Positions 11,290-18,025 of a stretch of 63,653 nt of DNA are shown here, piece after piece. Made by a program: the position numbers and the translations under genes. The stretch comes from Clostridia bacterium (GTDB taxonomy: Bacteria; Bacillota; Clostridia; Oscillospirales; CAG-272): the NCBI GenBank assembly GCA_017452475.1, contig JAFTMJ010000003.1:1-63653 (forward strand), in the 5' to 3' direction. The notes under the pieces are model-generated. The model searched no databases. It was not told the origin of the DNA and saw only the letters and a program-made list of their open reading frames with translations. The first letter of the stretch is position 1. Every line of letters starts with the position of its first letter.

Positions 11290-11310
11290 TCAATCTCCTA
11301 TTTTCAAATT

Positions 11311-11340
11311 CGTTCTCAAATTGAGAACGTTTCTCAAATT
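11311..11340. promoter_or_regulatory. Palindromic operator, Fur/Zur-family-like
   Basis: TTGAGAA-CGT-TTCTCAA (11321-11337) overlapping TTCTCAA-A-TTGAGAA (11313-11327), just downstream of the minus-strand promoter. Confidence 0.6.
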
Positions 11341-11348
11341 ACAAGCCT

Positions 11349-11377
11349 ATTATAATACTCAAAACAAGAAAAGTCAA
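11349..11377 (-). promoter_or_regulatory. sigmaA promoter of the metal operon
   Basis: TTGACT (11372-11377), 17 bp, TATAAT (11349-11354), minus strand. Confidence 0.75.
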
Positions 11378-11498
11378 TACTTTTTAGCGTTAAAAACAAG
11401 CTCTTTTTACTAAAAAAAGCAAAAAATGTGGAAATTACTAATAAAAAAGTATTGAAAACGGAAAAAAGATGTGCTATTATCTATGCAGATAGATTTTA

Positions 11499-11592
11499 CA
11501 GAGTAAATGTATGTGCGTTAAGTGTTTAGAGGACGGGGAGTTGTCTCTTTAACGAAAGCCGTTGGCTGCGGTACATACGTTGCATCCCGCTG
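11499..11592 (+). promoter_or_regulatory. THF riboswitch
   Basis: CAGAGTA...GCGTTAAGTG...GGACGGGGAGTTG...AACGAAA...GCGGT...GCATCCCGCTG matches THF aptamer landmarks; upstream of folT-like CDS; promoter TTGAAA 11452-11457 / TATTAT 11475-11480. Confidence 0.9.
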
Positions 11593-11649
11593 GACTCATC
11601 TCCACAAATGGTGCAAAATCTGTATTTTCATTTGAGGAGGTGTTTTTTT

Positions 11650-13455
11650 ATGTCAAAAAAAGAAAGTATAAGAAAATTAACAACAACAGCTATGCTAATA
11701 GCCTTAAGCGTAATTATCGGTATGTTCTGCAAAACCTTTTTGAACTTCGGGGCAGGACTGTTTAGGGTTACCTTTGAAAATATACCTATTTTAATGGCAG
11801 GCATTATAATGGGACCAATTACAGGCGGCGTGGTCGGCTTGTCCTCCGACCTTTTAAGCTACCTTTTGTCCCCGCAAACATATCCCCCGAATTTGATAGT
11901 TACCTTGGGTGCTACCATGGTGGGAGTTGTGGCAGGCTTGGTGTCAAAATTTTTGGTAAAAAGGCGGGGAAGTGTCCAAATTATCGCCTCAGGAGCCTTA
12001 GCGCACATTGTTGGTTCAATGATAATTAAGCCAATAGGCTTGTTTCAATTCTACCAATACCTTGTGTTCCTAAGGATACCGTTTTATATGGTCATTGCCC
12101 CAATTGAAATTATGCTTATTTGCGTTTTATTAAGGAGGAAAAGCTTTGCCGCCGTGGTAGGATATGTTGATAAAATGAAGAAGGAAGAGGCGCTTGAATA
12201 TATTCATTCAATAAATTGGACCTTTTGCAAGCTGGGGCTTGAAAGGATAGGGGAGCTTTGCACTAAGCTCGGCAACCCACAGGATAGCTTAAGGTTTATC
12301 CATGTGGCAGGCACAAACGGCAAGGGCTCCTTTTGCTCAATGCTTTCAAGCGTATTAAAGGAGCAGGGCTACTGTGTGGGTATGTATACATCTCCATACA
12401 TTAAATGCTTTAACGAGCGCATGCAAATAAACGGTGAGCCTATAAGCGACGGTGAGCTAACGCAAATTACGGAAAAAATTAAGCCCATCGCTGACCAAAT
12501 GGATGACAAGCCAACGGAGTTTGAGCTTGTTACCGCCATTGCTTTTGAATATTTTAAAAATCACAAATGTGACTATGTTGTGCTTGAGTGCGGCTTGGGT
12601 GGCAGGCTTGACTCAACAAACATTATAAACACCCCCGTGTTGTCCGTAATAACAGGAATAGCTCTTGACCATACATCAATCTTGGGGGATACAATTGAAA
12701 AAATCGCAGGCGAAAAGGCTGGCATTATAAAGGAAGGAGTTGCAGTCCTTTGGTGCGGCACTGACAAAGAGGCGCAGGAGGTAATTTCAAATGCTTCAAA
12801 GGAGAAAAACGCACCGCTGTTTACCGTGAACAGAGAAGTGCTGAATGTGAAAAATGCGACACTGGATGGCACCTTTTTCGATTATGGCGAGCATAAGGAT
12901 TTGAAAATCTCCTTGCTTGGCGAGTACCAAACGCAAAACGCAATGAATGTGCTGTGCGCGGTCGATTTGCTAAGGGATAATGGAGTTAAAATTGACGAAA
13001 GCAGCATAAAAGCAGGCTTGGAAAAGGCTAAGTGGCAGGCAAGGTTTGAAATTATATCCCAAAACCCGTTGGTTATCTTTGACGGCTGTCACAACCCGCA
13101 GGGTGTTGACTCCTGTGTGGAAAGCATAAAAAAGTACTTCGGCGCAGAAAAGCTCATTGTTATTACAGGAGTTATGGCGGACAAGGATTACAATTACATT
13201 TCAAACAAAATCGGTCAAATTGCAAAAGAAGTATATTGCATAGCTCCAAATAACCCTCGCGCTCTTTCCGCAGGCGAATATGCCAAGGAATTTGAGAAGC
13301 AGGGCATACCTGCTTTTGGCTGTGAAAGCGTTGGCGAGGCTGCAAAAAAAGCGATTATGCGCGCAAGGGAGCTTGGCGCAGGTGTTGTTTGCTTAGGTTC
13401 CCTTTATATGTACTCGGAGGTTGAAAGCGAAATCAAGAAAAATAGTGAATTTTAG
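11650..13455 (+). CDS. folC: Fusion: folate ECF S-component (FolT) plus folylpolyglutamate synthase/dihydrofolate synthase (FolC)
   Basis: First 175 aa are a 6-TM S-component (AMLIALS, PILMAG...GPITGG); then MKKEEALEYIH...HVAGTNGKGS, YTSPY, LECGLGGRLDSTN, DGCHNP; no stop between; GAGGAGG RBS. Confidence 0.88.
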   Translation: MSKKESIRKLTTTAMLIALSVIIGMFCKTFLNFGAGLFRVTFENIPILMAGIIMGPITGGVVGLSSDLLSYLLSPQTYPPNLIVTLGATMVGVVAGLVSKFLVKRRGSVQIIASGALAHIVGSMIIKPIGLFQFYQYLVFLRIPFYMVIAPIEIMLICVLLRRKSFAAVVGYVDKMKKEEALEYIHSINWTFCKLGLERIGELCTKLGNPQDSLRFIHVAGTNGKGSFCSMLSSVLKEQGYCVGMYTSPYIKCFNERMQINGEPISDGELTQITEKIKPIADQMDDKPTEFELVTAIAFEYFKNHKCDYVVLECGLGGRLDSTNIINTPVLSVITGIALDHTSILGDTIEKIAGEKAGIIKEGVAVLWCGTDKEAQEVISNASKEKNAPLFTVNREVLNVKNATLDGTFFDYGEHKDLKISLLGEYQTQNAMNVLCAVDLLRDNGVKIDESSIKAGLEKAKWQARFEIISQNPLVIFDGCHNPQGVDSCVESIKKYFGAEKLIVITGVMADKDYNYISNKIGQIAKEVYCIAPNNPRALSAGEYAKEFEKQGIPAFGCESVGEAAKKAIMRARELGAGVVCLGSLYMYSEVESEIKKNSEF

Positions 13456-13482
13456 CAACATTTTTACAAAAAGTCGTTATAC

Positions 13483-13511
13483 TTGACAAAACCGAATATA
13501 TGTGTTATAAT
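13483..13511 (+). promoter_or_regulatory. Consensus sigmaA promoter of polysaccharide operon
   Basis: TTGACA (13483-13488), 17 bp, TATAAT (13506-13511). Confidence 0.8.
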
Positions 13512-13590
13512 TAATCAACTGTTGTACAGAATAAAACCAATATTCGTATTAGATTTTTGACGTGTTAAATTAATAGGATAGGAAGTATTT

Positions 13591-14625
13591 ATGAGTAATA
13601 AGGTTGAAAATACAAATCTGACAACCGAGGAAAAGGCCGAGCTTAAGGCTGAAAATAAGGCTGAATTCCGCGAGTGGTTAGCTTTTCAAAAAAAAGAATT
13701 TGTAAAGAATGTTAACATAGTAAAGCAGCTTGTTTTAAGGAGCATTAAGGTTCAGTACCGTAACTCCGTTATCGGCGTTTTTTGGACAATTCTTAACCCT
13801 CTTTTAAATATGCTCGTTATGTATTTGGTGTTTAGCAGTATGTTCCAAAGGAGTGGCGGTGCCACCCCGACGGACGGTGAAACATATGCGCTTTATCTCC
13901 TTTGCGGTAATATCGTGTTCGGTATGATGAGGACAGCGACGTTCCAGTCACTGCCGTCAATTGTGCAAAACAGGGGCTTGCTTACAAAGAATAAAATGTC
14001 TTACAATGTTTTCCCTCTGTCATACACGCTTAGCGCCGTGGTTAACTTCGGCTTTTCATTTATAGCCCTTTTGGGTGTTATGCTGTTTGTTCGCTTCTTC
14101 AGCGGTCAAGCGGTGTTCAGCTTCAATATTTTCTTGGTGCTTGTTGCATTGCCGGCATTGTTTTTATTCAGCTATGGCTTGTCCTTGGTTCTTTCCGCAA
14201 TGTACACATTCTTCAGAGATATTAAGCACTTCTACAATGTTTTCCTTACATTGTGGATGTATTTGACCCCGATTTTCTACAATATCAATATGTTTGACAA
14301 CGCAGGCTTCTCTGCAAGCTTTATGAAAACGGTTATTAAGCTTAACCCAATGTACTACTTTGTTGAGTATTTTAGGGATGTTGTTTACAGATGCTCGGCT
14401 CACGAGGGCGCAATCTCGGGCTTAAAGGCAGAGGTTGCAAATGCTATAGCTACAGGCTCAAATAGCTTGGCGGAGCTTCAGGTCGATTTGGCTGCAACTA
14501 TTGAAGCGGCACAGCTCCCGGGCGTTGGCGCTGTGTTCACGCTTTATGCAATTGGTGGTATAACAACGCTTATCGGTGCAATCGTGTTTATGGCAACTAA
14601 GCGTAAGTTTATTTACAACATTTAA
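13591..14625 (+). CDS. ABC-2 polysaccharide export permease (Wzm/TagG-like)
   Basis: YRNSVIGVFWTILNPL, WMYLTPIFY, LNPMYYFVEYFRD. Confidence 0.88.
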   Translation: MSNKVENTNLTTEEKAELKAENKAEFREWLAFQKKEFVKNVNIVKQLVLRSIKVQYRNSVIGVFWTILNPLLNMLVMYLVFSSMFQRSGGATPTDGETYALYLLCGNIVFGMMRTATFQSLPSIVQNRGLLTKNKMSYNVFPLSYTLSAVVNFGFSFIALLGVMLFVRFFSGQAVFSFNIFLVLVALPALFLFSYGLSLVLSAMYTFFRDIKHFYNVFLTLWMYLTPIFYNINMFDNAGFSASFMKTVIKLNPMYYFVEYFRDVVYRCSAHEGAISGLKAEVANAIATGSNSLAELQVDLAATIEAAQLPGVGAVFTLYAIGGITTLIGAIVFMATKRKFIYNI

Positions 14626-14637
14626 TGGTGGACGAAG

Positions 14638-15564
14638 ATGTTTAAGAGTCATAAAAAGCATATAATGAAAAATAGCGAGAACGTTATCGAGGTAGAAAAT
14701 GTTTGTATGGACTTCTACCGCCGTGACGAAAAGGTTGACAACCTTAAGGAGTTTTTTGTAAGACTCGTAAAGGGCAAGCTGGAGCGTAAAAAGGAAAGAA
14801 TTCTTGAAAATATCAGCTTTGAGCTTAAAAAAGGTGAGTCAATCGGTCTTATCGGTCATAACGGCGCAGGTAAGAGCACGCTGCTTAAAATTATTTCCAA
14901 TATCATTGAGCCGACCGAGGGTACGGTGCGCACGCACGGTGTAATCGCGCCGCTTCTTAACCTTGGCGCAGGCTTTGATTATGAGGCTACAGGTAAGGAA
15001 AATGTATATCTAAACGGTGCTATCTTAGGCTATTCAAAGAAGGAGCTTGAGCATAAGTACAAGGAGATAGTTGAGTTTTCCGAGCTTGAAAAGCATATGA
15101 ACATACCGCTTAAAAACTATTCCTCGGGAATGGTTGCCCGTCTTGGCTTTGCAATTGCTATTGACGTTGAGCCGCAAATTCTTTTGGTTGATGAAATTTT
15201 GTCAGTTGGTGATGAAAACTTTAGGCGTAAATGTGCTGACAAGATTGATGAGCTGCGCAGAAAGGGTGTATCCTTTGTTATCGTTTCCCATAATATTGAC
15301 CAGGTAAGGAAGCTTTGTCAAAAGGCATTGTGGATTGAAAATTCGCATGTAAGGGGCTACGGTGATGTTAACGAGGTTTGCGACAGATACGAGGAGTATT
15401 GTGCCGATATAAAAAAGAAGGCTGAACAGGCTAAGAGAGCGGCTGAGGTGGAAAAGTTTGCCAAGGCTGAGGCTGAGGCGGAAGCAAAGGCTGAAGAACT
15501 GTTAAGCGCAGTGCTAAACGAAAATAGCACGGCAGAGGCTGTTGCCGAAGCAGAAAACAAATAA
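14638..15564 (+). CDS. Polysaccharide export ABC ATPase (Wzt/TagH-like)
   Basis: GHNGAGKST, YSSGMVARLGF, ILLVDEILSVGD; Ala/Glu-rich tail. Confidence 0.9.
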   Translation: MFKSHKKHIMKNSENVIEVENVCMDFYRRDEKVDNLKEFFVRLVKGKLERKKERILENISFELKKGESIGLIGHNGAGKSTLLKIISNIIEPTEGTVRTHGVIAPLLNLGAGFDYEATGKENVYLNGAILGYSKKELEHKYKEIVEFSELEKHMNIPLKNYSSGMVARLGFAIAIDVEPQILLVDEILSVGDENFRRKCADKIDELRRKGVSFVIVSHNIDQVRKLCQKALWIENSHVRGYGDVNEVCDRYEEYCADIKKKAEQAKRAAEVEKFAKAEAEAEAKAEELLSAVLNENSTAEAVAEAENK

Positions 15565-15638
15565 TAAAGTTAGCCCGCCGAGTGATATTAATTTCTCGTC
15601 GGGCTGATTTTACTATGGAGGGGACAATGAAGGAGACA

Positions 15639-16994
15639 ATGAACAAGACAAGTGCGCTTTTTAACGCCTTGTTGGATCTTGTTTTAAATATAGGCGCCAT
15701 TTATTTGGCTATTTTGGTGGTGGGTAGAGATGTGTATGGCTTTAGCGGTACAACAATTGCCGTGTCTACCATTTGCGCATTCGCTTCAATTATTGTATAT
15801 TTTGCCAGCGATATGTACTCGCCAAAGGTGTTTGAAAAGCTGCACAGGGTGCTTATTAAGCTTTTCGGCGCGCAGATTTTTATAACAGGCGTTTTGGTTG
15901 TTTTGGTTGCAATATTTATGCCAACCGTTGCGCTATTTAAGCTCGTTCTTATAGGTGCAGGCTTTTCCTTGGCTGCGGTTTTAATCAAAACAGTGCTTTT
16001 TGTCAAGATTAGTCATAGTGCAAGAAGGGCGCAAAAGCACAAAAGAACAGTTCTTTTAGTTGGCAACGGTAAGGGTGCTTTGGAATATAAAAAGCAGCTT
16101 GACGCAAACCCACACTACGGCTATTCGGTTATTGGTTGCGTGGGAGAGCGGCAAACTGACGGGCTTAAGTGGTTCGGAAATTACAAGGATCTGCCCACCG
16201 TTTTAGAGGAGCAAAACCCCGATGAGGTGGTTATTGCGGTTTCACTAAGAGAGGAGCCGATGATACAGGAGTTTATTGATGTTTGCGACACTGCAGGTAT
16301 TAGGTCATCAATCGTTCCTCCTGTATACAGATACATCAAAGCAAAATGCCAGGTTGACATGGTTGGCTCAATGCCTGTTATCAACACAAGGGACATCCCT
16401 CTTGACAACCCTGCAAACGCAGCAATGAAAAGGCTAATGGACATTGTAGTGTCCTTGGTTGCCATAATTGTAACATCTCCCATAATGCTCGTTGCTGCCA
16501 TCGGCGTTAAGCTTTCGTCAAAGGGTCCTATCATTTTCAGGCAGGAGCGCGTGGGTAAAAACAACAAAAAGTTCACAATGTATAAGTTCCGTTCTATGCG
16601 TGTCAACGACCAGGAAACAACAGGCTGGACAACTGCAGAGGACAGAAGAAAAACAAGGTTTGGCACATTTATGCGTAAAACAGGCATTGATGAGCTGCCA
16701 CAGTTCTTTAATGTTCTTTTCGGCAGTATGTCAATTATCGGTCCCCGTCCTGAGCTTCCGACGTTTGTGGAGCAGTATTCAAAAACCGTTCCGCTATATA
16801 AGGTTAAGCACCAGGTGAAGCCGGGCATTACAGGTCTTGCGCAGATTTACGGCTTCCGTGGAGATACATCCATTGAGGGCAGAATAGAAATGGACATCAA
16901 ATACATTGAAAACTGGTCACTTTTCAACGATATAAAAATACTGTTTTTAACACCGTTTAAAATGTTTAACAGAAACGAAAAATATGTAAAATGA
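15639..16994 (+). CDS. Undecaprenyl-phosphate sugar phosphotransferase (WcaJ/WbaP-type)
   Basis: N-terminal TMs, KRLMDI, YKFRSM, DELPQFFNV, GPRPE, KPGITGLAQ; AGGAG RBS supports 15639 (15627 alternative). Confidence 0.9.
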   Translation: MNKTSALFNALLDLVLNIGAIYLAILVVGRDVYGFSGTTIAVSTICAFASIIVYFASDMYSPKVFEKLHRVLIKLFGAQIFITGVLVVLVAIFMPTVALFKLVLIGAGFSLAAVLIKTVLFVKISHSARRAQKHKRTVLLVGNGKGALEYKKQLDANPHYGYSVIGCVGERQTDGLKWFGNYKDLPTVLEEQNPDEVVIAVSLREEPMIQEFIDVCDTAGIRSSIVPPVYRYIKAKCQVDMVGSMPVINTRDIPLDNPANAAMKRLMDIVVSLVAIIVTSPIMLVAAIGVKLSSKGPIIFRQERVGKNNKKFTMYKFRSMRVNDQETTGWTTAEDRRKTRFGTFMRKTGIDELPQFFNVLFGSMSIIGPRPELPTFVEQYSKTVPLYKVKHQVKPGITGLAQIYGFRGDTSIEGRIEMDIKYIENWSLFNDIKILFLTPFKMFNRNEKYVK

Positions 16995-18025
16995 AAATAT
17001 TAATCGCCGCATCAAATATGGTGCATATCAACAACTTTCATCGCCCGTACATTGAGGAGTTTAAGGCTCGCGGGCATTCGGTGTATATAATGGCAAACGG
17101 AGAGGGCGCTGATTTCAATATTGAATTTGAAAAAAGCACCATTTCCTTTAAAAACCTTAAGCTGTCCTACAAAATAAGGGATATTATCAAGCAGGAAAGG
17201 TTTGATATAATCTATTTGCACACCACCTTGGCTGCCTTTTGGGTTAGAATGGCTTTGCGTGGGGTGAAAAACAGGCCTTATGTTGTGAATACGGTTCACG
17301 GCTATTTGTTTGGAGAAAACTCAAGCAAGGTGCATAACACGCTTTATCTAAGCTGCGAAAAGCTCCTAAGAAATCAAACAGATGAAATCGTGGTTATGAA
17401 TAAGGAGGATTACAACATAGCCAAGGATAACAAGCTTTGCCGTGGAAACATATACTTCATAAACGGTATGGGCGTTAACTTTAAGGATGTAACCGAAGAA
17501 ATATCAATGGGTCAAAAGGGCAAAATTTCCCTTGCCTTCGTTGGCGAAATAAGCAAGCGCAAAAATCAAATTTTCTTAGTTAAGTCTATGAAGCAATTGA
17601 CAAGCTATACCCTTACCCTTGTGGGCGACGGTGATGCAAGGGATGAAATTGAGGAATATATAGCAAAGGAAGGCTTAAGCGACAGGGTATTTATCACAGG
17701 CTTTACAAAGCAAGCATACGAATATGTTAAGGGCTGTGATATATATGTGTCTGCATCGAATATCGAGGGCTTACCGTTTAATATAATGGAGGCTATGTAT
17801 CTAAAAAAGCCTATTGTTGCTTCGAATATCAAGGGTCACTGTGACCTTTTGGAGGGCGGTCAGCTATTTCCCCCCAACAATATGGAGGAATATGTTCGCC
17901 TTGTTAAGAATACAACTATAGGTGAGCGCGCGTACGATATTGAGAGATATAGGCTCCAAAGCACCTTGGAGGAAAATATGAGCATATATCTTTCTAATGA
18001 AAAACAACCGTCAGTTGCAAAATAA
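16991..18025 (+). CDS. Glycosyltransferase family 4 (GT-B)
   Basis: VNTVHG, NGMGV, GEISKRKNQ, EGLPFNIMEAM; ATGA-type overlap with upstream gene. Confidence 0.88.
   Translation: MKILIAASNMVHINNFHRPYIEEFKARGHSVYIMANGEGADFNIEFEKSTISFKNLKLSYKIRDIIKQERFDIIYLHTTLAAFWVRMALRGVKNRPYVVNTVHGYLFGENSSKVHNTLYLSCEKLLRNQTDEIVVMNKEDYNIAKDNKLCRGNIYFINGMGVNFKDVTEEISMGQKGKISLAFVGEISKRKNQIFLVKSMKQLTSYTLTLVGDGDARDEIEEYIAKEGLSDRVFITGFTKQAYEYVKGCDIYVSASNIEGLPFNIMEAMYLKKPIVASNIKGHCDLLEGGQLFPPNNMEEYVRLVKNTTIGERAYDIERYRLQSTLEENMSIYLSNEKQPSVAK

Follow-up and report, generated by a model that had tools for sequence, protein, structure and literature searches.

Coupling of vitamin transport to metabolic trapping is known from PnuC with NadR, and retention of folate by folylpolyglutamate synthase (FPGS) from L. 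casei and from mammalian cells. In these systems the vitamin is modified at once and cannot leave, a logic shared with the FolT-FolC protein proposed here, but transporter and enzyme are separate in the former and covalently linked in FolT-FolC. In Firmicutes, operons are found in which a THF (tetrahydrofolate) riboswitch is followed by folT and folC, an arrangement with the parts and the order of the gene described below. An orf2/folT-folC operon has been reported for Streptococcus suis (PMC4232619). The operons of S. suis and of F. prausnitzii (L028) specify two separate proteins, whereas the gene in the window (the whole 63,653-nucleotide stretch of DNA, from an uncultured Clostridia bacterium of gut or rumen, that was analysed) encodes one polypeptide. 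The S-component fold is also found carrying cytosolic domains in the 5TMR-LYT sensor kinases, and the AxxxA motif of S components has been linked to docking on EcfT and to assembly of the ECF complex (PMC11109136).

One frame of 601 codons (11650-13455, plus strand) was found to encode a folate-family ECF S component (residues 1-175) followed by a complete FolC, with zero stop codons between the two parts, in agreement with the first-pass annotation, which had claimed a 175-aa S component running without a stop into a complete FolC. Pfam matches in the 601-aa protein were ECF_trnsprt (residues 8-169), Mur_ligase_M (219-437) and Mur_ligase_C (465-584). The sole long ORF detected at the locus by an ORF scan extended from 11608 to 13455 on the plus strand; its credible start is the ATG at 11650, which is preceded by GGAGG at 11636-11640 and gives a product of 601 aa. 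The start previously assigned, position 11499, falls in the riboswitch and outside the ORF. The explanation that best accounts for the data as a whole is that this is a genuine monocistronic gene whose single polypeptide consists of FolT, a 14-residue tether and FolC, and we regard it as probable. The features of the locus are listed in Table 1.

Table 1. Positions in the window of the folT-folC fusion gene, its parts and its upstream elements.
Feature	Positions	Strand	Description
Promoter-like site	11452-11480	+	TTGAAA, 17-nt spacer, TATTAT with TG extension; consensus match only
THF riboswitch aptamer	11497-11594	+	Rfam RF01831
Expression platform	11597-11649	+	Predicted hairpin 11597-11642, then T7 at 11643-11649
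FolT domain	11650-12132	+	Residues 1-161; six membrane helices; folate-family ECF S component
Tether	12133-12174	+	Residues 162-175, RRKSFAAVVGYVDK
Met176	12175-12177	+	Ancestral FolC start codon, now internal, in frame
FolC domain	12175-13455	+	Residues 176-601 and stop codon; folylpolyglutamate synthase/dihydrofolate synthase family

The riboswitch that had been proposed to control the fusion gene was confirmed by the Rfam covariance model RF01831, which matched with 81.3 bits (gathering score 36) over the full model, positions 1-99, without truncation. A THF riboswitch was present upstream of folT in 20 of the 20 relatives tested, fused and split alike. The promoter-like site matches the consensus at 10 of 12 positions, and this candidate promoter would give rise to a transcript starting just 5' of the aptamer. 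The arms of the platform hairpin, predicted to be stable (CATCTCC-A-CAAATG ... CATTTG-A-GGAGGTG), appeared in the MFE fold as well as in the centroid fold, the 3' arm being the ribosome-binding site itself, and the motif GGAGGTGTTTTTTTATG of the expression platform is kept among members of the clade of fused genes to which the window gene belongs. The hairpin was not called by a simple terminator scan, because its loop exceeds 8 nt. Binding of THF would turn transcription off, with the terminator stem also burying the ribosome-binding site, so that the element would act as an OFF switch.

The FolT domain matched the NCBIfam model TIGR04518 (folate-family ECF S component) over residues 5-164 with 101.7 bits (cut-off 60), and in a genome-wide search with the same profile the fused FolT scored 106.1 bits against that cut-off. 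An AlphaFold2 model of the FolT part (residues 1-175) had a pLDDT of 91.9, and its best 11 fold matches in the PDB were all FolT chains (TM 0.57-0.77), including 4z7f, 4huq_S, 7nnt_C, 5d3m_C, 5d0y and 5jsz_C, with RibU, BioY, PanT and ThiT ranking behind them. Sequence identity to the solved FolTs of L. brevis (4HUQ), E. faecalis (4Z7F) and L. delbrueckii (5D0Y/5D3M/5JSZ/7NNT) was 16-24%; unlike these, the protein carries a 47-kDa cytosolic enzyme at the C-terminus of FolT. Helix 1 contains an AxxxA motif (A14-M-L-I-A18); over 110 fused proteins, its first position (A14) holds Ala 97 times and Ser 12 times, and its last (A18) holds Ala 107 times. Family HMM, fold and AxxxA are thus shared with the FolTs of group II ECF transporters, which likewise rely on a common ECF module encoded elsewhere. 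As part of the same overall explanation, the domain is likely to serve a group II ECF transporter as its folate-binding S component, with both termini cytoplasmic, and this topology supports the placement of FolC on the cytoplasmic side. High-affinity binding of folate and its ECF-dependent uptake would fit the THF riboswitch and the fusion to FolC, which lend them indirect support.

The tether, judging from its sequence, consists of the cytoplasmic tail of FolT itself and about three codons of what was once intergenic spacer. The pattern SFAxVVGY is conserved clade-wide in the tether region, and in a split relative (L009) FolT ends with ...SFCKLTGYL, followed by a stop. The tether was modelled as a short helix (164-170) and a coil (171-177) with a pLDDT of 72-74; the full-length model had a pTM of 0.74, a value that does not fix the orientation of the two domains. 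Between Leu161, at the end of helix 6, and the FolC Met there are 15-54 residues across the fused proteins, the window protein belonging to the shortest class. In ECF structures the cytoplasmic end of helix 6 is close to the surface where S components meet EcfT, so that a tether of 14 residues may be sterically tight in the toppled, docked state.

The FolC domain matched the NCBIfam model TIGR01499 (folC) over residues 197-592 with 390.5 bits (cut-off 162.65; 392 bits in the genome search), and scored under the cut-offs of the bifunctional equivalog models (233.6 against 700 and 220.6 against 360). Its fold matched the FPGS structures 1o5z, 2vor, 1w78, 2gc6 and 1fgs with target-normalised TM scores of 0.84-0.89. 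The domain was 29-34% identical to the bacterial FPGSs of L. casei (1FGS/1JBW), T. maritima (1O5Z) and E. coli (FolC, 1W78), from which it differs in being tethered to the membrane via FolT. Invariant across the 110 fused proteins were the GTNGKGS P-loop (221-227), E313/G315/G317/G318/R319/D321, H341, K356/K361 and D478-G479-x-H481-N482. The FolC part has the two-domain Mur-ligase fold, with P-loop and catalytic residues intact. In profile searches of the genome, which is 96.8% complete, the fused gene was the only FolC and the only FolT over the cut-off, so that both functions probably fall to the fused protein. No folP, folK or folA (DHFR) was found in this 96.8%-complete MAG of 94 contigs; in a genome that lacks folP and folK, only the FPGS activity, and not that of a dihydrofolate synthase, would have a substrate. 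Genes for the ECF module, ecfA (15054-15926), ecfA' (15930-16796) and ecfT (16798-17631), followed by truA, are located on a contig separate from that of the fusion (C40, 15054-18398).

Clustered at 90% identity, fused FolT-FolC proteins fall into at least 110 groups, and at 50% identity into about 14; NCBI lists such proteins as 'folate family ECF transporter S component'. No paper describing the fusion was found in a full-text literature search, and a passing mention in early comparative work is possible. The first-pass annotation did not know the fusion as a characterised architecture, which is in line with that search; in sequence space, with clusters in such number, the fusion is not unusual. 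The FolC tree requires six changes between the fused and the split state, at least three of them on well-supported branches. In split Oscillospirales relatives, -23 to +46 nt separate the stop of folT from the ATG of folC; the junctions include ATGA overlaps and TAAGGAG, in which the stop forms part of the Shine-Dalgarno (SD) sequence, and at ten split loci folT and folC share one frame. The F. prausnitzii locus (match 2-593) was rejected as a fusion, as tblastn placed folT and folC in different frames, and five further candidates for full-length fusions (G129, G070, G051, G116 and G018) contained one in-frame stop each and were reclassified as split. The ancestor appears to have been the common, tightly packed riboswitch-folT-folC operon. 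We infer an order of events in which the folT stop codon of such an ordinary operon would have been lost; fusion has arisen several times within Oscillospirales. In the lineage of the window the fusion is probably old and vertically inherited, again as a component of the explanation favoured overall.

An open junction could arise from an assembly or sequencing error, or from a recent loss of the stop in a gene pair that is itself being lost; the source genome is a MAG, and a single base change suffices to fuse or split folT and folC. Against this, a second strain has the gene in the same frame, colinear over its length, with 19 substitutions and no indel. This strain is represented by identical DNA from two assembly pipelines (ENA, L126; Logan, L127), counted as one extra strain because the identity suggests one sample assembled twice. 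Whether the nearest relatives are fused or split had been posed as a check by the first-pass annotation, and they are fused: the two congeneric genomes sampled (G031 and G120; 65% identity) carry the fusion, and the nine fused loci of the clade, which comprises about 46 clusters, are monophyletic in the FolC tree (SH-aLRT 97). The order ArsP_2, fused gene, ABC2_membrane is kept in five clade members (62-73% identity). The invariance of the catalytic residues, in what is the only folC of the genome, also argues against decay. The open junction does not appear to be an assembly artefact, and error or decay is an explanation to which we give almost no credence. Greater weight attaches to the production of two proteins, the fused FolT-FolC and a free FolC started at Met176, in which case the fusion would add a tethered pool and soluble FolC would stay. 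Stand-alone FolC proteins of relatives start at the position equivalent to Met176, and the residue is found in 46 of 46 clade members and 107 of the 110 fused proteins (97%) amid hypervariable flanks (4-18 different residues at positions 173-179 over all 110), which could mean an SD-independent internal start. An A-rich stretch, GATAAAATG, lies immediately before the internal ATG, and some other fused lineages retain a strong SD there (GGGGAGG in L011, -12.1 kcal/mol). In the window's clade, in contrast, the internal SD is weak or absent, with anti-SD duplex energies of +2.2 to -6.5 kcal/mol at the internal ATG against -8.5 to -13.4 kcal/mol at folT starts (-5.5 and -12.8 kcal/mol, respectively, in the window). 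Split folC starts had a median of -6.5 kcal/mol, down to -11.7, and background internal Met codons -2.7, in statistics that cover the loci at which the automatic search located an ATG and leave out some distant ones. The weak AGGA upstream of the ATG at 12175, as described in the first-pass annotation, is indeed present (12159-12162, 12 nt ahead) and reads AGGC in the 99%-identical strain, and a consensus scan found no promoter-like sites on the plus strand within folT. Conservation of Met176 was rejected as decisive proof of an internal start and is weak evidence alone, because the same invariance is seen in 26% of the clade columns. The FolC start codon of the clade is conserved despite decay of its ribosome-binding site; owing to this decay, the main protein made from the gene is likely to be the fused one, probably with no other beside it, and we consider an accompanying free FolC unlikely. 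Cleavage of a fused precursor into separate FolT and FolC would sit with the lower model confidence of the tether and has nothing direct in its favour, while the linkers, which differ in length and have no sequence common to the lineages, showed neither a protease motif nor a conserved site of cleavage; this we judge highly improbable.

For the single fused polypeptide, which is our preferred reading, a role in folate import can be proposed. The organism would have no folate synthesis of its own and no second FolT or FolC, and the fused protein would therefore have to dock on the shared EcfA-EcfA'-EcfT. Once docked, it would import (probably reduced) folate, which FolC would polyglutamylate at the inner membrane surface, so that folate would be kept in the cell and be usable as a cofactor. 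Given a sole FolT/FolC in a genome without folP, folK and folA, the physiology is sensibly read as uptake with subsequent polyglutamyl trapping, and import-coupled trapping, as suggested in the first-pass annotation, is a reasonable proposal. Net uptake through facilitators can also be driven by trapping enzymes, as established for Pnu transporters. By analogy with the logic of PnuC/NadR, or with solitary BioY, the S component alone might serve as a slow facilitator, independent of the ECF module, with the attached ATP-dependent FolC pulling folate in by trapping. A bulky cargo beside the EcfT-contact surface might hinder docking, which would favour such a route, but the ecfA-ecfA'-ecfT cluster of the genome is canonical, the AxxxA motif associated with ECF assembly (PMC11109136) is conserved among the 110 fused proteins, and split orthologues of the fused FolT domains lie in the same operon context; we regard ECF-independent uptake as improbable. 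Docking of the fused protein on the ECF module thus remains the preferred reading. In toppled, ECF-docked FolT the folate site opens toward the cytoplasm (PMC7755397), and folate might conceivably be handed straight on to FolC, or channelled. The covalent link would then be functional in itself, with tethered FolC taking folate from docked FolT and ATP-driven glutamylation aiding release of the ligand from an S component of very high affinity, in a natural group-translocation-like unit, a proposal that we make tentatively and consider doubtful.

A further S-component fusion, to a LarA-type racemase, is present in the same genome (contig C58, 2159-4006). A soluble cargo on an S component, which had been called mechanistically surprising, is less so in view of this protein and of the 5TMR-LYT kinases: all combine the six-helix fold with a large soluble domain at the cytoplasmic C-terminus, although the 5TMR-LYT kinases serve as receptors without docking on an ECF module, in contrast to the role proposed for FolT-FolC. 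FolT-FolC joins two well-understood and already adjacent genes, and the conceptual gain is therefore modest. A rigid soluble domain of 47 kDa on a 19-kDa S component would nevertheless be a useful fiducial for cryo-EM. Should the fused protein function in the proposed way, it would be a natural experiment on the amount of cytoplasmic bulk that is compatible with an exchangeable S component that topples, and on whether downstream metabolism is coupled to the release of a vitamin bound very tightly; were direct hand-over true, the principle may extend to other fusions of S components with enzymes, for example that with LarA. In folate-auxotrophic Clostridia of gut and rumen, folT and folC have fused repeatedly and independently, and this recurrence offers good evidence of a comparative kind that uptake and polyglutamylation form one functional unit in these organisms, a point of relevance to modelling how vitamins are cross-fed in gut communities.

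A single long open reading frame was detected by ORF scan within positions 11290–13600, on the forward strand at 11608–13455. Its credible start is the ATG at 11650, which is preceded by GGAGG (11636–11640) and seven T residues, resulting in a fused protein of 601 residues (P0001), both halves of which passed the family membership tests (TIGR04518 and TIGR01499, each above cut-off). The first-pass annotation had described FolT and FolC in one frame under a THF riboswitch at 11499–13455, and the ORF, Pfam, NCBIfam and Rfam results confirmed this observation in every particular; the fusion placed in that span stands, while the start it gave, 11499, falls within the riboswitch rather than the ORF. 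The genes on both sides are unrelated to folate and the exporter downstream has its own promoter, so the fused gene stands alone. This downstream promoter would serve the ABC-2 exporter and sugar-transferase genes; the site scan placed no terminator-like site in the interval separating it from folC.

Features of the fused gene, its surroundings and a second S component–enzyme fusion of the same genome (C58, another contig)
Feature	Position	Basis or remark
Promoter-like site, TTGAAA-17 nt-TATTAT, TG extension	11452–11480	Consensus match
THF riboswitch aptamer, full length	11497–11594	Rfam, 81.3 bits (gathering score 36)
Folate-family S component, TIGR04518	P0001, residues 5–164	NCBIfam, 101.7 bits (cut-off 60)
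ECF S component, ECF_trnsprt	P0001, residues 8–169	Pfam
FolC, TIGR01499	P0001, residues 197–592	NCBIfam, 390.5 bits (cut-off 162.65)
Two Mur-ligase domains	P0001, residues 219–437 and 465–584	Pfam
Sigma-70 consensus promoter, TTGACA-17 nt-TATAAT, TG extension	13483–13511	Perfect match; 28 nt past folC stop
ArsP_2/ABC/FtsX metal operon	Upstream of fused gene	Divergent
ABC-2 exporter	Downstream of fused gene	Own perfect promoter, 13483–13511
ECF S component, PF12822	C58:2159–4006 ORF, residues 7–166	50.5 bits
Lar_N	C58:2159–4006 ORF, residues 188–392	238.6 bits
LarA_C	C58:2159–4006 ORF, residues 453–603	211.9 bits

A long RNA hairpin (11597–11642) was predicted to separate the aptamer from the start codon; its 3' arm is the Shine-Dalgarno (SD) site and is followed by U7 and the ATG. 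In the resulting GGAGGTG-T7-ATG arrangement (11636–11652), near-identical in every member of the window's clade that was examined, the 3' arm of the terminator doubles as the ribosome-binding site and the terminator U-tract as the spacer from the SD to the start codon. The hairpin is predicted to be an OFF switch that ends transcription and masks the ribosome-binding site. Each of the 20 relatives tested, whether fused or split, had a THF riboswitch ahead of the gene or genes.

Independent sequences of relatives exclude, for practical purposes, both an assembly artefact and a newly arisen inactivating mutation. The gene for a 99%-identical protein from another sample (P0002) differs by 19 substitutions and no indels over 1806 nt, and the AGGA that had been noted ahead of the internal ATG reads AGGC in that strain. 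Both of the other genomes that were sampled from the window's genus (65% identity) share the open frame, and five remoter members (62–73% identity) are likewise fused and retain the gene order ArsP_2, fused gene, ABC2_membrane; the close relatives checked thus do not carry split genes. Maximum-likelihood analysis of the FolC domain recovered the window's group of nine fused loci as a single clade (SH-aLRT 97).

A protein search for full-length fused homologs identified 110 clusters (90% identity level) carrying both domains, of approximately 590–643 residues and down to 48% identity; those with an NCBI name are called 'folate family ECF transporter S component'. In a library clustered at 50% identity, roughly 14 of the 150 top-ranked representatives were full-length fusions, and the named relatives were Oscillospiraceae, Ruminococcaceae, Acutalibacteraceae and 'Clostridia bacterium' MAGs. 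Even sampling of the window's family gave matches in 99 of 151 genomes; folT lay directly upstream of folC wherever both genes matched, and only about ten of the 99 had the fused form. The order-level sample contained 309 matching genomes, only a few of them clearly fused. Some genera contain both fused and split species (G057 vs G139, G103 vs G007, G138 vs G056 and G117 vs G027), and the FolC tree needed six changes between the two states, at least three of which are forced by well-supported branches. In split relatives the distance from the folT stop to the folC ATG ranges from −23 to +46 nt, including ATGA overlaps and TAAGGAG sites where the stop codon forms part of the SD, and at ten split loci both genes are already in one frame. 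The repeated changes in the tree, the tight or overlapping split genes and the shared riboswitch indicate that the fusion has been derived repeatedly, by one mutation each time, from a familiar operon, and path lengths near 0.5 substitutions per site in the tree indicate long retention in the window's lineage.

Faecalibacterium prausnitzii APC923/61-1 has unfused folT and folC genes behind the THF riboswitch, with 42 nt and a change of frame between them, which would make this cultured gut species a convenient split comparator. In seven further genomes of the order-level sample (G160, G214, G189 and G234, all of genus g107, and G359, G373 and G403) the FolC match starts near query residues 171–194 and sits inside open frames of 591–677 residues, which may represent additional fusions, either to divergent FolT or to other N-terminal domains. 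Seven library proteins of about 800–890 residues (P0122, P0124, P0127, P0128, P0137, P0142 and P0146), with two FolC-matching stretches or a C-terminal FolC behind some 370–480 other residues, represent different FolC architectures, fused or duplicated.

With a start at 11650 and no stop at the junction, the ribosome must make the fused polypeptide. That free FolC is also translated, from Met176 (12175–12177, the ancestral FolC start), seems unlikely in the window's lineage. The anti-SD pairing energy before this internal ATG is weak, from +2.2 to −6.5 kcal/mol in the clade and −5.5 in the window, compared with −8.5 to −13.4 for folT starts and −2.7 kcal/mol for ordinary internal Met codons; folC starts of split relatives have a median of −6.5, down to −11.7 kcal/mol. 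A consensus scan found no promoter-like site on the forward strand inside folT. On the other side, a younger fusion (L011) retains a strong SD (−12.1 kcal/mol), and Met176 never varies in the 46-member clade and occurs in 107 of the 110 fused proteins amid hypervariable flanking residues, although its invariance is weak evidence by itself as 26% of clade columns are also invariant. Either internal initiation without an SD or some structural role could account for its retention despite the decayed SD.

Both halves of the fused polypeptide are intact. The AlphaFold2 model of whole P0001 had a pLDDT of 90.8 and a pTM of 0.74, and its FolC part superposed on folylpolyglutamate synthase structures 1O5Z, 2VOR, 1W78, 2GC6 and 1FGS with target-normalised TM-scores of 0.84–0.89. 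For residues 1–175 modelled separately (pLDDT 91.9), the 11 top PDB matches were all FolT chains, with RibU, BioY, PanT and ThiT ranking lower. In FolC, the P-loop GTNGKGS, E313, H341, K356/K361 and D478-G-x-H-N are invariant in the 110 fused homologs. The AxxxA motif of helix 1, tied to assembly on the EcfA-EcfA'-EcfT module (PMC11109136), is conserved at A14 (97/110) and A18 (107/110). The six-helix count and charge distribution indicate that both termini of the FolT part are cytoplasmic, placing FolC on the side of the membrane that holds ATP and glutamate.

The genome (2.10 Mb, 96.8% complete) holds, by profile search, exactly one FolC and one FolT above cut-off, both being the fused gene, and a canonical ecfA-ecfA'-ecfT-truA cluster on contig 40. 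Neither folP, folK nor a FolA-type DHFR was found in this 96.8%-complete genome, suggesting dependence on imported folate; the organism is probably a folate auxotroph requiring reduced folates. The fused protein would be its sole visible route for folate uptake and polyglutamylation, and this, together with the need for imported folate, is the strongest argument that it functions in both roles.

The fused protein would dock on EcfAA'T like other group II S components, and its FolT part would then topple, exposing the folate site to the cytoplasm; a toppled state with the folate site open to the cytoplasm is known for ECF-FolT2 (PMC7755397). The tethered FolC would add glutamates and so trap the vitamin. 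Helix 6 ends at Leu161, and Met176 follows 15 residues later; this tether belongs to the shortest class among fused proteins (range 15–54) and was modelled at intermediate confidence (pLDDT 72–74). We consider it doubtful that it is functionally required for direct folate hand-over and ligand release. The earlier interpretation of import-coupled trapping is partly supported, and its surprise that a toppling S component should carry so large a cargo is softened by two cases. The S-component fold commonly bears C-terminal cytosolic domains in 5TMR-LYT kinases (PMC11109136), and the genome encodes a second S component–enzyme fusion, a 604-aa reverse-strand ORF (C58:2159–4006) in which the S component continues in frame into an entire lactate racemase of the LarA type.

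Among known systems the nearest is the THF riboswitch-folT-folC operon found in Firmicutes such as S. suis (PMC4232619), from which the fused gene differs in the covalent FolT-FolC link. The first-pass annotation had not recognised the fusion as a characterised architecture, and a full-text literature search, with the founding comparative papers outside its reach, found no paper on the fused protein. Judged from sequence, the fusion is real, widespread, recurrent and already automatically annotated, its activities being predicted. Conceptually, FolT-FolC is a Rosetta-stone case, in which two genes with an established functional partnership are joined.
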